A DNA stretch of 64,000 nt from Octopus vulgaris (lineage: Eukaryota). Each line of letters opens with the position of its first letter. Position 1 is the first letter of the stretch. Where the stretch lies: contig OX597840.1 in assembly GCA_951406725.2 (NCBI GenBank), positions 23,994,001 to 24,058,000 of the forward strand, read 5' to 3'. Below the pieces are notes generated by a model. The model was not told where the DNA came from. It ran no database searches and saw only the letters and a list, made by a program, of their open reading frames with translations. The position numbers and the translations under genes are program-made. Positions 25,994 to 36,050 of this stretch are shown here, one piece after another.

Positions 25994-26306
25994 TATGAGT
26001 ACATATATTCATAAAAATGGGCCTGCACAAGCACTCTTGAATAAGACAGTTCTCAAATAAGATACTTCACAAAATACATCTAGCTGTATTTTTTGCAGAG
26101 CAGTTTGTGAGAGTGCTCAACAAACTCGTCAGAAAACATCTAGTTAACAATGTAATTAAATGCAATTAGTGGTACACAAGAAACCAAATCAAGAGATATA
26201 AATAACAAGGGTAACATATAAATACATGTGTGGGGTAGTGAAACAAGTAAAAGAGTATATAAAAACATACAAAAACAAAAATGAAAAATGAAAAGGGGTC
26301 ACCTAC

Positions 26307-27192
26307 CGCTTGGAAAGATGAGATACAGTATTGAAGGTTGAGGCTAATGATGTGAGGACACAAACCAGCTAACGTGGACAACTGTTCGCTATTTATCTTG
26401 ATGTTCTCTAACAAGTTCAAATGTCGCAAATTTACAGCTTCTTCCCATTTAATCATATCCATCGGAACCTCGATGTTAGACCGAGACAGATCCAAGTTCT
26501 CCATCTCCGACATGTTTTTGAAAATGTTTGCAAAATATGGTTTGGTCGTCAGGTTAGCCATCGGCTTCAACAGAGTCTTCAGGTGGAGGTCGACTTTACA
26601 CAATTCCAATAAAGTTCCGAAGAAGAAAATCCGAGCGGCCGGATCGGCGGCATCGTTTATGGCAAGTTCTTTGATTCTCTGGAAGTTATTTACATTCAAG
26701 ATCAGCGGACTGAGCATGTCTTTCGGTAATCCCCTATGTGGCGTGCCCAGAACGCGTAAACTCTCCAGGTTGCCACAGTAATGAAACAAAGAAGTGTTGT
26801 GAACAAAATTCACCGAAACGGACAAATCCAACTTACAGGTCTCCTGTTTGAAATGGAGACAGAGTTTCTTCAGGTGCCAGAGTGTATTCTGTGCCGCCTT
26901 GTTCCGCATCACTTGTTCCGTTATGTCTGTGATACTGGCGATTGAGCAGGAAAATACTCGGATCAGTTGGTTCTTTGCGAGGATCTGAACGAGTTGGTGA
27001 GATCGGAGTTTGCATTCAATCAGGTGCAGGTCGGTGACCTTCTGGCACTTGAGCACCATTTCGGTAACGACCTGAGCCGGGAGCCAGTAACAGTGGTTCA
27101 AGTTCAGCTTGCAGATATGGTGACAGGAATTGCTTATGATCTCTTTGTAGATGTCTTTGGACATTTCGTGGAAACAACTGAGATGAAGAGAA
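26307..27192 (-). CDS. FBXL18: FBXL18-like coding exon 2 (LRR region, 886 nt)
   Basis: Lies inside ORF 26166..27269. Pyrimidine tract + ctgcag acceptor; donor GCG|GTAGGT (phase 0). LRR motifs KLNLNHCYWLP, ENLDLSRS, RHLNLLEN, SLNLQYC. CYWLP recalls vertebrate FBXL18. Confidence 0.9.
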
Positions 27193-27557
27193 CTGCAGAG
27201 GAAGAGGAAGAGAAAAAGAGAAAGATTAGAAATTGGTAACAAAGGAAATACAGATATATACACACACACGTATACAGAAATGAATAAATAATAATATATA
27301 TATACATATACTCATACATACACCTGAACATATGTATATACAAACATGTTTACATACGTATATATACTCATACACATACATATATTCATACACCTACACA
27401 CATATATATATTCATACACCTACATATCTATATATATACTCATATATATATATATATACATATATTCATCCACACACACATACATATGTATACATGTATG
27501 TGTGTGTTTGTATATCAAAAGGATGTGTTATAATACTATTCCATATGTACAAAAACA

Positions 27558-28626: not shown

Positions 28627-30713
28627 CGTTAAGCGATCATGATGATGATGATGATGATATATATATGTATGTGTGTGTATGTGTGTTTGTACCCCCACCA
28701 TCGGTTGTCAAGTGATGGTGGGGGTACAAACTTAGCGGTTCAGCAGAAAGGACTGATAGAATAAGCACCAGGCTTACAGAGAATAAGTCGAGGGGTTAAT
28801 TTCTTTGACAAAAAGGCGGTGCCCCCGCATGGCCACACAGTCAAAATGACTGAAGCAAGTAAAAGCTATAAAGGACAAAAGACATAGATGTGGATTAAAG
28901 GGGAAGAAAGGGACAGAATGGGATTGACGGAGGGCAGACAGAAGATGAAAGAGGGATCAGCAGAAGATGGAAGGAAATTGAAATGAGGGACAAAAAATAT
29001 ATATAAAGAGGCAGGCAGTCAGGCAAGCAGACTAAAAAAAAGATGCAGAGTGGAAGGGGGAGAGAGAAATGCAGAGGAGGAGAAGGGAGGGAGGAACTAT
29101 GCACTATGGGTAAAAGGGGAAGCCCAGGGAAGAAGGGATTGGAATGTGGGACGCGTACGAATGAGAATTTCAATGAAAAGAAATGAAAAATGGAAGGGGA
29201 ACAGAAATATGGTCGCGATGTGGGTGGAGATTCTATTTTCAATGTGGAAGAATCCATTTAAAAAACAGAAATGTATATCACAACTATTCTGTCACCCCTC
29301 CACCGCCGCCATCGCCGCCACCAACATGAACTCGGCAATTAGCAGCTTTTCATGTATTTCACTCCTACTCCTTCTCACTATCACCTCCTACTCCTACTCA
29401 CTCTCACCTCCTCCTCTTGACAGCAGACGTAGCAACTTTTATTACACATAAAAAAAAGCCAAGAGCCCAGAAGGAAGGGCCTGGCTGTGGTTGTTTGACC
29501 TGCTAGAAATAGCAGCCAAATATTTCCAAATCAGTCTCTTACTTTTCTATCTTTTACTTATTCTCAGCCACTGCGCCGTGGCCATACTGGAGCACTGCTT
29601 TGAAGGCAGTGATGGGTTTTAATCAAACAAACTGACACCCCAGTACTACCTTTTTTTTTTGCTTTTTAAGTCTGGCACATATTTTATCGATAACTTTTGC
29701 TGAACTGCTAAGTTACCGAGGCATAATCAAACGAACTTTCGTTGTGAAGCTGTAGTGGTGGAGGCGGGGAACAACACACACACACACATATGTATATGTC
29801 TATGTGGTTAAGAAGCTTCTTTCTGAACCGCATCCTTCTGGGTTCAGTCCCACTGCATAACACCCCGGACAAGTGTCTTCTACTACAGCCTTAGGTTGAC
29901 CAAAGCCCTGTAAGTAGATTTGGGAGAAGGAAACTGAAAGAAGCCCATCTTGTGCGTGTAGGTGCATATGTGAGTGCGTGCGTGTGTTACTCTCTCCTTA
30001 CCTTGACATCGTAAAATACCTAATCACGGGGGAAATATCATCTTATTTGGAAATGGGTAAGGGTTGGCATCAGGAAAGGTACCCAGCCACAGAAAATCTG
30101 ACTCAGCAAATTCTATCCACCCCTTGCAAGCATGGAAAAGTGGATTGTTAAAACAATGATGATTATATATGATTATATATATATATATATATAGTCACAG
30201 GAGTGGCTGTGTGGTAAAAATGTTGCTTTCCAACAATATGGTTCTGGGATCAGTCCCACTGCATGGCACCTTGAGCAAGTGTCTTCCACGATAGCCTCAA
30301 GACAACCAAAGCCTTGTGAGTGGATTTGGCAGATGGAAACTGAAAGAAGCCTGACATATGTGTGTGTGTATATGTTTGTGTCTGTGTTTGTCCCCCCAAC
30401 ATCGCTTGACAACCGATGCTGGTATCTTTACGTCCCCGTAACTTAGCGGTTTCGGCAAAAGAGACCGATAGAATAATTACTAGGCTTACAAAGAATAAGT
30501 CCTGGGGTCGATTAGCTCGACTAAAGGCCGTGCTCCAGCATGGCCACAGTCACATGACTGAAACAAATAATAAAAAAAAATAAAGGGTTGGTGTTAGGAA
30601 AGGCATCCAGCCGTAAAAACCCTGCCAAAACAGACAGTGAAGCCTAGTACAATCTTCTGCATAGTCTAACCCATGCTAGCATGGAAAATGGATGTTAAAT
30701 GAGGATGATCACG

Positions 30714-30772
<59 letters not shown>

Positions 30773-30773
<1 letters not shown>

Positions 30774-32435
30774 GTCTTAGCAGCAATAAAGGAAATGAAG
30801 CATAATTCAGCAGTAGGTCCCGATAGGTTCCCTGCTTGTGTCTTGAAGATGTGTCAAAACCAACTTGCACCCCCTCTAGCCAATCTGTGGCGGAACTCAT
30901 TGGATGCTGGATATATACCAGAAGACCTTCTATCCCAGTCTGTTGTCCCAGTTTTCAAAAAAGGAAACAAATCGCTTGCCGTGAATTACCGTCCAATCTC
31001 ACTCACCTCTCATATCATCAAGGTATTTGAGAGGGTGCTGAGATCGCGTATGACTCACTTCCTTGAGAGTCATAATATGCTGAACCCCAACCAGCATGGA
31101 TTCCGTAATGGGAGAGATTGCCTGACGCAGCTACTGCATCATTTTGATGACATTTTGAGAGCCTTGGGAGAGGGTTCCAACACTGATGTCATCTACCTTG
31201 ATTTCAGCAAGGCCTTTGACAGGGTTGATCATAAGATCCTTCTGAGAAAGCTGTCCAATATTGGTGTCACTGGAAAGCTGCTGCAATGGATCAAGTGCTT
31301 CCTCTCTAACAGAACCCAACATGTTGTAGTCGAAGGAGTCAAATCCAGCCCAGCCAAAGTCAGCAGTGGTGTCCCACAAGGCACTGTGTTGGGCCCACTT
31401 CTCTTCATCATCTACATAAATGATATTACTGACACCATCAAACACAGCAACATCAGAACCTTCGCTGATGATTCCAAGCTCCAGAAGGTCATCAATGGCG
31501 TGGATGACCGAATAAACCTTCAGTCAGACCTACTAGCTGTTGTCCAATGGGCGGAAAAGAATAACATGTTGCTAAATGAAGACAAATTCGAACTGATCCA
31601 CTTTGGAAGGGAGGACGCTCTGAAACTCCCATACTCTCTTCCTTCTGGAGAAATTCTCATGGCATCCGACAACATCAGAGACCTGGGAGTAACAGTGGAC
31701 AACAACATAAGCTGGGCTACACATATAAGCAGCAAAGTTGACATGGCCCGCAGAATGTGTTCCTGGATTCTCAGAACCTTCCAGTCGAGAGATTCCCACG
31801 CTATTATCCTTCTCTTCTCCACTTTTGCCCGACCCCACCTTGAATACTGCTGTCCACTGTGGTCTCCCTACACAAAACAAAATATTATGAGAATTGAAGC
31901 TCCCCAAAGGTCAATCACAAAAAAGATAGATGGCATGTCAGACCTTGACTACTGGGGTAGACTAGAGAAGCTGAAATTGTATTCACTCCAACGACGCCGT
32001 GAACGCTACATTATCTGTATGATGTGGAAAATATTCCATCAGCACTGTCCGAATGATGTTGGCATCACCTTCAAAATGCATCCAAGGCTTGGACCACGTG
32101 CCATCCGTCCACAACAAAAATCTAAATCGCATCACATAACGACAATACGGCACAACTATTTCACCTCAATTGGACCCGCTCTCTTCAACATTACACCAGG
32201 ACACGTCAAAAAAAGAAACTGACCACACAAAATTCAAGAAGTCTTTGGACAAATTCCTTCAAACAGTACCGGACAAACCATCCACACCCGGATATGTCTC
32301 CGCAAACAATAACTCTCTGCTCGAATGGGCCTTGGTGCCCAAATCCTGAACTGAAAGACTTCGCCAGGTGGTGCTATTAAGTTAGACATGGCCTGGGCCA
32401 ATACTGGCCAAAAACCTTTCTAAGTTATTCTAAGT
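30773..32435 (+). mobile_element. 5'-truncated LINE (CR1/L2/Jockey-group-like) with reverse transcriptase and 3' end
   Basis: ORF 30699..32222 carries RT motifs NYRPISLTS, QHGFR, YLDFSKAFD, GVPQGTVLGP, FADD, RPHLEYC. C-terminus continues after an A7 frameshift to TGA 32347-32349. Tail (TTCTAAGTTA)2. Candidate 12-bp TSD tatatatacata at 30761-30772 and 32436-32447. Confidence 0.93.
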
Positions 32436-34287: not shown

Positions 34288-34964
34288 TTTATATATATAT
34301 ATATAATGATATATATATAATGATATGTAAAGGTAAGACCCAAGGATCCAGGTGTAGGGAGTTATTAGGCTTCAAGCAGTCGGTAGAATGTATAAAAAGC
34401 AACTTTCAGGAACAATAGTGGTTTATCGATGTAGAAAGTTGCAAATGTTTCCCATATCGATGTTCGATAAGCTGGAAAAAAGTTATTTCACGGTTCACAG
34501 TTAGCAGTTGGGGTTGCTGTGTATATAAACAAAAATCCAAATTTAGGGAACAGAGCTGGTAAAATGTAGGTTACATATGTTTCCTAGCTAGCAGAACCTC
34601 AGAAGTAGTAATTACTCAACGAGGGTGACTCCACCAGCTACTCATCTGGTTGAAGATACCTTAGTTAAATGAAGGTTACACTGTTGTCAAGGGATCCCAA
34701 GTTAACTAACTGGAGATATCATCATCATCATTTAACATCCCCTTTTTTTTTTCCATGCTGGCATGGGTTGGATGATTTGATAAGAACAGACAAAGCAAAT
34801 GGTTCCATCAGGTCCTGTGTCTGCTTTGGCAGGGTCTCTACATTTGGATGCCCTTCTTAATGCTAACCCCACTTAACAGGATATACTAGGGTTTTTTTTT
34901 ACGTAGCACCAGCACCAGTGAGGTTACCAAGTACCCAGAAGAAAAGACCCCTCAACGGAGCAGG

Positions 34965-35124
34965 AATTACAACTGTGTTTCGTGGTCTGCTACCAGAACA
35001 GATCCTTTATAGGATCCAGTTAGCTCAAGACATCATCAGGAGGAACCACGTCCGGTTTTGGCTCCTACTCCTCTACTGTTTTGACGTGGCAGGGCCCCCT
35101 CTTTCGGAGGTGTCTTCAGCTACA
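34965..35124 (-). mobile_element. 160-bp insert with hammerhead-ribozyme-like motifs (Penelope/retrozyme-like)
   Basis: Flanked by direct repeat ggagcagg (34957-34964, 35125-35132). Minus strand reads CTGATGA - long hairpin - CGAAAC acagtt GTA, with a second CTGAAGA upstream. Confidence 0.55.
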
Positions 35125-35340
35125 GGAGCAGGTGTCTTGAAGAGGTAGACACATGGCTTGCCCACCTGGGAAGTGAGAGAGTGAGATGTGAGGTCCAGGT
35201 GGGAAGTAAATATGAGACAGAATAGGACAGAAGAGGGCCAAAGGTGGATGTGTGAATAAGGGCACAAAGTGAAAATAGGGTGACAGATGATTAGAGATAG
35301 GGAACAAGTTGGATGCAGAGGAGATGTTTACAGTGGAAGC

Positions 35341-36050
35341 ATGGCTGCTCCACTAGAAATGTGCACCAAAGGAAAACAAAGAGCGGCGATCTGAGAGATG
35401 GCTATGATGAATCGGTTCATCATTACCATCTTTTGAGCTTGCTGCTGAATCGTCTTGTCAGTGATGGAGGTTGACATGCATCCTGCTCCCTCTGTGTATC
35501 ATGCTTGTCTGGCCACTTTTTACTTCTCAATCCACTCATACCCACTTCTACATGATAGTGCACTGGTAAGGCGGTGATCTGACAGAAACGTTAGCACGCC
35601 GGGCGAAATGCCTAGTGGTATTTCGTCTGCCACTACGTTCTGAGTTCAAATTCTGCCGAGGTCGACTTTACCTTTCATCCTTTCGGGGTCGATTAAATAA
35701 GTACCGGTTACGCACTGGAGTCGATATAATCGACTTAATCCGTCTGGCTGTCCTTGTTTGTCCTCTCTGTGTTTAGCCCCTTGTGGGTAGTAAAGAAATA
35801 GGTATTTCGTCTGCCGCTACGTTCTGAGTTCAAATTCCGAGGTCGACTTTGCCGTTCATCCTTTCGGGGTCGATAAATAAAGTACCAGTTACGCACTGGG
35901 ATCGATATAATCGACTTAATCCGTTTGTCTGTCCTTGTTTGTCCCCTCTATGTTTAGCCCATTGTGGGTAGTAAAGAATTAGGTAGTGCACTGTCCCCGT
36001 ATTGTGCTAAAAGCTTCAGTTGTATTTCAGCACCTGACGCACCTTTAACC
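35341..36050. mobile_element. Rearranged mariner transposase remnant interrupted by a SINE dimer
   Basis: Plus strand 35341-35390: MAAPLEMCTKGKQRAAI. Minus strand (36045-35994, then 35565-35400): GASGAEIQLKLLAQYGDSALSCRSGYEWIEK*...STSITDK, a mariner N-terminal HTH region. Confidence 0.7.
35566..35983 (+). mobile_element. SINE family E dimer (core gcctttcatcctttcggggtcgataaa, Deu/Nin-domain-like)
   Basis: Head plus two ~190-bp body units. Perfect 10-bp TSD tagtgcactg at 35556-35565 and 35984-35993. Domain name is from recall. Confidence 0.85.

Follow-up and report, generated by a model that had tools for sequence, protein, structure and literature searches.

A Hero-like retrotransposon of Octopus vulgaris carries a predicted hammerhead of undescribed strand order and may retrotranspose through a circular RNA

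The 160 nt at positions 35121-34962 on the minus strand of the window (the whole stretch of 64,000 nucleotides of Octopus vulgaris DNA analysed here) are the 5'-truncated 3' end of a non-LTR retrotransposon of about 3.9 kb that encodes a reverse transcriptase (RT) and a restriction-like endonuclease (RLE). The reading that we consider somewhat favored by the evidence is that this element is Hero-like, that its terminal region holds a predicted hammerhead with a strand order not described so far, and that it is retrotransposed from a unit-length RNA closed into a circle and primed internally. A wider proposal, which we would place slightly below even chances, is that Hero elements are autonomous by means of an RNA circle made by their ribozyme, that this ribozyme represents a seventh natural wiring of the hammerhead, with the chain broken between A9 and G10.1, that the lifestyle of Penelope-like elements and retrozymes was thereby reached independently, and that an R2-type protein primes in the middle of the circle. 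Hero elements, SGC hammerheads and Penelope pseudo-LTRs were each already known; no publication uniting them, or describing the splitting of the conserved block discussed below, was found in the openly accessible part of the literature. According to the text of PMC13580325, Hero elements are inventoried in a supplement to Fell et al. 2025, and the main text of bioRxiv 10.64898/2026.07.22.740005 contains no mention of Hero or RLE. Likewise, a hammerhead, partial tandems or internal priming in Hero elements were not found reported in the literature searched.

The Insert in the Window

The insert (34962-35121, minus strand) is intronic with respect to an FBXL18-like gene and has the sense of that gene. 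This placement derives from the initial annotation and from an FBXL18 LRR exon at 26166-27311 (-), which matches PF19729 (E 1.2e-8), rather than from a gene model. Two copies of an 8-bp direct repeat, CCTGCTCC on the minus strand, bound the insert, as seen both by re-reading the sequence and by a search for target site duplications (TSDs): the left copy (35125-35132) is separated from the insert by three extra bases (35124-35122), and the first three bases, CCT, of the right copy (34957-34964) overlap the end of the element as a microhomology. Re-reading also confirmed the remaining minus-strand motifs from which the initial annotation had started, namely CTGATGA (35039-35033), CGAAAC (34982-34977) and a terminal GTA (34970-34968), an upstream GTA (35076-35074) followed by GAGGAG (35073-35068), and an extended hairpin (35031-34985). 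The hairpin, formerly read as stem II, is evident from sequence and folding, stands between the predicted ribozyme and the priming site, and likely acts as a protein-binding or priming element.

That annotation had seen in the insert a 106-nt, non-coding retrozyme monomer, with a type I hammerhead cutting at the terminal GTA, so that the 3' end of the insert would coincide with a cleavage site. A terminal AC-A/loop/U-GU-A hairpin does resemble a stem III, as such a model would have it. However, the copies of the family end 2-14 nt past GTAATT, at a common 3' end (34962-34970 in the window, minus strand) that is probably the internal start of reverse transcription; in longer copies the sequence runs straight on from there into the 5' UTR, and the CCT with which the right-hand repeat opens doubles as the end of the family. 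Moreover, the strand needed for stem I follows the last GTA in none of 130 non-redundant copies, in which the five bases after ...GGTTG are TAATT (115 copies) or close variants (15 copies), and neither the type I nor the type III order fits any of 33 diverged loci. The copies are in fact the ends of a coding element, the actual unit being 3.9 kb long and protein-coding instead of 106 or 160 nt, and we give the retrozyme model almost no chance of being correct. What holds from the initial annotation is that the insert is a retrotransposed cDNA with a hammerhead-like core.

Other repeats are present in the window. A tRNA-derived SINE-like repeat at 35570-35700, 440 nt away from the insert, presumably resembles known cephalopod SINEs, and a weak Rfam tRNA match (30.2 bits) at 58123-58184 (-) is probably a SINE head. 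A 507-codon open frame at 30699-32222 (+) contains an RT domain (Pfam RVT_1, E 1.7e-31) and corresponds to another LINE, which lies antisense to the gene like FBXL18.

The Parent Element and Its Clade

The insert proved to be multi-copy: a search of the octopus genome itself (2.8 Gb) returned more than 1,000 candidate copies (1,327 candidates), and the 40 of them that were scored gave 42 matches at 91-97% identity. All 30 copies that were fetched share one 3' end, while their 5' ends vary, and the longer ones extend upstream, where a 3' UTR of about 430 nt leads to the end of an ORF. When this ORF end was used as the query, the same terminus was found in 30 of the 30 loci recovered. The encoded protein contains an RT domain (Pfam RVT_1, E 8e-22), and translation shows a single ORF in which a CCHC knuckle and the PD..E..K motifs of an RLE come after the RT; the closest solved structures in a PDB search were R2 proteins (E 7e-43). 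The ORF is broken in all genomic copies examined. A zinc-finger-like motif, C-C-G...H...C, with no Pfam match, was recognized at the N-terminus in the translations of two loci (L003 and L065), and we take it to resemble the N-termini of Hero proteins. Judged by eye on three rows of the alignment, the RT motifs agree closely with those of HERO-2_DR and HERO-1_BF as given by PMC5678591 (supplement file 6).

On these sequence features, the element likely belongs to the Hero clade of RLE non-LTR retrotransposons. It shares with this clade of the R2 group (HERO-1_BF, HERO-2_DR) the single ORF with the N-terminal zinc-finger-like motif, RT, CCHC and RLE, as well as dispersed, 5'-truncated copies and TSDs of variable length. 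The latter amount to 8 bp at the window copy and to roughly 21-33 bp at four other loci (L012, L028, L110 and L229); under a simple search few loci gave any TSD, and most gave none. The element is not a Penelope, as its protein combines an R2-type RT and an RLE and contains no Penelope RT with a GIY-YIG endonuclease. Nor is it a retrozyme, that is, a non-coding unit bounded by type I or III hammerheads with ends at the cut. Retrozymes, as described in PMC4918200 and PMC7229834, are alike in having a hammerhead-bounded unit and a proposed circular RNA intermediate, but they are non-coding, non-autonomous and of type I or III, whereas the octopus family encodes its own RT and nuclease. Contigs from four sequencing runs, which we guess to be of RNA, cover the unit piecewise and are silent on its ends, strand and circles.

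A Predicted Hammerhead with a Permuted Strand Order

As the core is read here, the middle GAAA (35059-35056, mutated in the window copy) pairs back with the bases preceding the upstream GTA, and it takes the place of the GAAA at 34981-34978 that the initial annotation had chosen. From 5' to 3', the parts of the fold on the minus strand are then the following. The 5' strand of stem II, with the equivalent of G10.1, is located 5' of the cleavage block (35091-35096), and after it comes the 5' strand of P4 (35083-35090), a helix that links stem II to stem I at their distal ends; both were recognized from the pairing in relatives. Block S (35068-35078) comprises one strand of stem III, U16.1-A17, the predicted cut and the stem I strand GAGGAG, and block G (35053-35065) the 3' strand of stem II, the GAAA core (with G12 replaced by A at 35059) and the other strand of stem III. 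The 3' strand of P4 (35046-35052), again from the pairing in relatives, immediately adjoins stem III, and finally the stem I strand TTCCTC and the CUGAUGA core (35033-35045), defined by sequence and pairing, stand without a stem II strand after them. The pairing of GAGGAG with TTCCTC as stem I thus survives from the initial annotation, while the cut, predicted by analogy, moves from the terminal GTA to 35074/35073, 112 nt inside the element. An upstream CTGAAGA (35119-35113), previously suggested as a second core, has no stem I partner and was not seen in relatives, and it was discarded.

The order of cleavage site, GAAA and CUGAnGA corresponds to the non-circular type SGC, and the full order, as read from the pairings, is 5'-IIa, P4a, IIIb-UH/cut/Ia, IIb-GAA-IIIa, P4b, Ib-CUGAnGA-3'. 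Because one strand of stem II has moved, with its helix arm, from the 3' to the 5' terminus, the opening of the chain falls within the core, between A9 and G10.1, and the strand order can be described as a circular permutation of type SGC. The conserved fold of the terminal region is predicted to be a self-cleaving hammerhead ribozyme. Type SGC, in the description given by Eckert et al. 2023 (PMC10085705), has the same order of site, GAAA and CUGAnGA, a short linker between stems I and II, and a helix that joins the far sides of these stems and sometimes abuts stem III without a spacer. In contrast, its stem II strand follows CUGAnGA, within a block C that was assumed to be unbreakable, whereas in the octopus family this strand lies upstream of the cleavage block. 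According to the same source, nearly all SGC ribozymes came from metatranscriptomes and, apart from one GCS candidate, none was found in the genomes of known organisms, unlike the SGC-like fold predicted here in an animal retrotransposon clade.

Support for this order came from a diverged set of 80 metagenome loci that encode protein relatives of the element. A strict motif scan found the SGC order in 12 of 33 eligible loci, with no match for the other 11 combinations of order and strand in the same 33 loci and none in 20 shuffles. A relaxed scan, in which stem II was no longer required, placed it behind the ORF in 23 out of 34 eligible loci and never in antisense, and failed to find it in the other 11; over 263 kb there were 34 sense matches versus 0 antisense. 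After setting aside matches judged to be due to chance (L116 at 2649, L168 and two in L189) and near-identical rows (L120, L128, L132, L134, L136, L149 and one end of L163), 26 non-redundant diverged loci remained, with a median amino acid identity of 45% and forming 24 clusters at 70%.

The core, namely CUGAnGA, GAAA and UH with A15.1-U16.1, is present in 27 of 27 families, as a search criterion demands, and is missing from the window copy, where G12 is A. Similarly, no family has a G as H17 and none departs from A15.1-U16.1, a result in part imposed by the scan. The pair closing stem II was not a criterion, and it is G-C in 26 of the 27 families and G-U in one. Neither the upstream stem II helix nor P4 was used as a criterion in the relaxed scan. 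The upstream strand of stem II, located 15-26 nt 5' of the cut, forms at least 4 bp in 25 of 27 families, with a mean of 4.85 bp versus 2.95 bp in shuffles (maximum 3.81 in 1,000) and 2.96 in cross-family pairings, and its inner positions show three to four pair types. An adjacent partner after CUGAnGA is impossible in 14 of the 27 families (mean 0.85 bp); in L117 and L166 a 4-bp downstream stem II can also be drawn, and in L116 the upstream stem forms only out of register. P4 spans 3-11 bp in all 27 families, with 6 or more in 21, and its duplex was calculated at -10.5 kcal/mol. Most positions of stems I and III have three to five pair types, the pairing of these stems being partly by construction as both were search criteria. 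Pair-type counts and cross-family controls show the three stems I, II and III to be backed by compensatory changes. Pairs were counted from anchors, the upstream strand of stem II having been missed by a MAFFT alignment.

It could be argued that the fold is only hammerhead-like and acts as a structural, non-cleaving signal for protein binding or priming. A chain broken between A9 and G10.1 goes against what PMC10085705 assumes about the blocks, and Rfam gave no hammerhead match in the window, either at gathering thresholds or locally with E up to 10, nor in 9 related loci, so that the scan proposed in the initial annotation was negative. The Rfam result is, however, expected because the strand order is non-canonical. 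Against a non-cleaving signal, the catalytic positions are all kept across 24 protein clusters while the helix sequences vary freely, and both the spacing and the helix joining stems I and II are as in SGC ribozymes that cleave; we regard this possibility as very improbable. ViennaRNA, which cannot model pseudoknots, folds an intact copy into P4 and an alternative stem I and not into the full core. The consensus structures of HDV-like and pistol ribozymes were also compared by eye with the two crossing helices, and both readings were rejected on account of an absent P3/L3 or strand order.

Within the octopus family, the site of G12 carries G in 100 of 113 copies, A in 12 and T in one, and core and stems are intact in 32 of 116. 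This proportion is expected from decay and is no proof of selection within the genome. The window copy has three lesions, the change of G12 to A and one mismatch each in stems II and III, and for this reason its predicted hammerhead is likely dead, in agreement with the inactivity suspected in the initial annotation. It is an ordinary dead fragment, and its interest lies in the family feature that it reveals.

Partial Tandems and Continuity of the Template

In the longest copies, the terminal region stands also before the 5' UTR, and they are therefore partial tandems of more than unit length. Five complete partial tandems define a unit of 3.77-3.92 kb, and the exact junction is identical in 8 of 8 spanning loci (9 with L065). 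A search with the start of the 5' UTR yielded 30 fetched loci out of 40 scored, which collapse to 22 independent ones when shared flanks are considered; 17 of these reach 157-1,000 nt upstream of the junction, none stopping at 112, and the remaining 5 end no more than about 20 nt away from it. These near-junction stops would fit an RT reaching its own start on a circle, as well as an RNA whose 5' end lies there. In two further loci the stop lies 62 and 99 nt, respectively, to the upstream side of the junction. At the other end, the agreement of terminal copies with the internal continuation lasts for 2-4 nt in 42 out of 50 cases, for 5-7 nt in 6 and for less in 2, the longest tail (L233) entering about 11-14 nt into the 5' UTR.

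The behavior of the copies at the predicted cut is equally relevant. In a sample selected with the last 70 nt, 55 of 57 non-redundant loci continue past it; of the other two, one is a short internal duplication and one (L267) starts at the cut within a 3-nt microhomology. Among 118 readable copies (the other 12 of the 130 either fell short of the site or failed to match it), 116 show no indel at the cut, and the two exceptions are deletions. Since copies pass the cut without indels and the junction is exact, the template is, judging from the genomic copies, continuous across both. Truncation points are rare between 70 and 158 nt from the family end (2 of 57), and several copies begin at 157-163 nt, like the window copy.

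Partial tandems may extend beyond the octopus. In seven of the 27 diverged loci with upstream DNA the motif is also found upstream of the ORF (L120, L121, L128, L135, L140, L150 and L172), these loci being metagenome contigs that may be collapsed repeats; an eighth upstream match, in L180, is located after an upstream ORF. Separately, a 3.8-kb metagenome contig (L163) has the predicted ribozyme at both ends and a unit of 3,733 nt, being either an assembled circle or a collapsed tandem, and many close protein relatives lie on contigs of 3.6-4.4 kb, about one unit.

Proposed Replication Cycle and Its Alternatives

All these observations could be integrated in a cycle in which a partial-tandem master copy would be transcribed across both copies of the predicted ribozyme, and two cuts would free an RNA of exactly one unit, bearing a 5'-OH and a 2',3'-cyclic phosphate at its ends, which would then be ligated into a circle. 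The element endonuclease would nick the DNA, and the nick would prime cDNA synthesis 112 nt downstream of the cut, often with the aid of CC/CCT microhomology. The RT would travel round the circle and in most cases stop early, leaving short copies such as the 160-nt insert of the window; occasionally, it would pass its own start and thus rebuild the upstream repeat that the next master needs. Since cleavage in the 3' ribozyme would take away the priming site at the 3' end and spare only the one near the 5' end, the cleaved RNA would be usable only as a circle or by a jump. A circle is, as we infer from the copies, the most likely form of the template. From the initial annotation, the possible involvement of circular RNA is thereby kept, now on account of the partial tandems, and the 106-nt unit proposed for it is dropped.

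The main rival keeps the same element and ribozyme and takes as template the uncleaved, linear read-through RNA of tandem or partial-tandem loci, with internal priming of the kind put forward for Penelope; the ribozyme would then serve another step, such as removal of a host leader, translation or the limiting of expression. Seamless passage across the cut site is equally expected from such a template, and in RNA viruses small ribozymes can, according to PMC13725137, have a role in the initiation of translation. It also has a precedent in the Penelope element PAc, for which PMC11167929 describes unprocessed RNA as the dominant substrate in vitro and no reads starting at the ribozyme site, a result that, by analogy, would count against the circle. 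However, no full tandem array was found among the fetched loci, in which the longest upstream extension is about 1,000 nt; without a circle or a jump the upstream repeat could only shrink through truncation, and the 3' priming site would be lost whenever the 3' ribozyme cut. We hold this alternative, with the other role for the ribozyme as part of it, to be unlikely but deserving of serious attention.

A second alternative lets the ribozyme produce a linear unit RNA on which the RT would prime 112 nt from the 5' end and then jump end-to-end to a 3' end. The R2 RT is capable of such jumps, and they often add untemplated bases. More-than-unit copies would in this way be explained without a ligase, and L267 does start at the predicted cut, but one copy in 57 is near chance, no insertion was observed at the cut site in 118 copies and the 5' ends do not pile up there. 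A jump is thus rather improbable, and a circle is retained as the preferred template.

R2 and other non-LTR elements prime at the 3' end of their RNA. R2 and other elements are known to carry 5' HDV-like ribozymes (PMC7650587). The arrangement proposed here resembles that of Penelope-like elements, for which pseudo-LTRs, minimal type I hammerheads and internal RT initiation are described in PMC11167929 and PMC4209133, and which are alike in their partial-tandem copies, the hammerhead in the repeated end and a tail matching the sequence past the upstream repeat. Penelope-like elements have a telomerase-related RT and a GIY-YIG nuclease, in contrast to the R2-type RT and RLE of the octopus element, and because the proteins differ in this way the shared architecture would be convergent.

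If this proposal is true, a non-circularly permuted hammerhead, so far metatranscriptomic, would be present in the chromosomes of animals, belonging to a retrotransposon throughout its clade, with a wiring beyond the six permutations enumerated in the 2023 paper (PMC10085705). [quoted passage not shown]

Other Features of the Octopus Family

In the 3' UTR of the family, a TATA-like box and, some 30 nt after it, the sequence TCAGTC, which we take to resemble the initiator consensus, lie about 275-243 nt before the element end in 17 of the 20 loci that reach this region (for instance, L002 and L027). The TATA-like motif was not found upstream in 22 diverged loci, and the pair was set aside as evidence for lack of conservation there. 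In nine loci (L003, L074, L077, L085, L086, L090 and L095-L097), internal deletions fuse the 5' UTR and the zinc-finger region to the 3' UTR, and these copies are possibly non-autonomous mini-units of about 1 kb, or the result of RT skips. Inverted element segments are present at 5' junctions or within the 3' UTR in L007, L010, L065 (6500-6685 of the oriented locus) and L242, and from their sequence they resemble the products of twin priming or template switching. Finally, clusters of copies with identical flanks occur in the octopus genome at 20.5-21.0 Mb of C30, 17-18 Mb of C29 and 2.70-2.75 Mb of C28, and represent segmental duplications that followed insertion.
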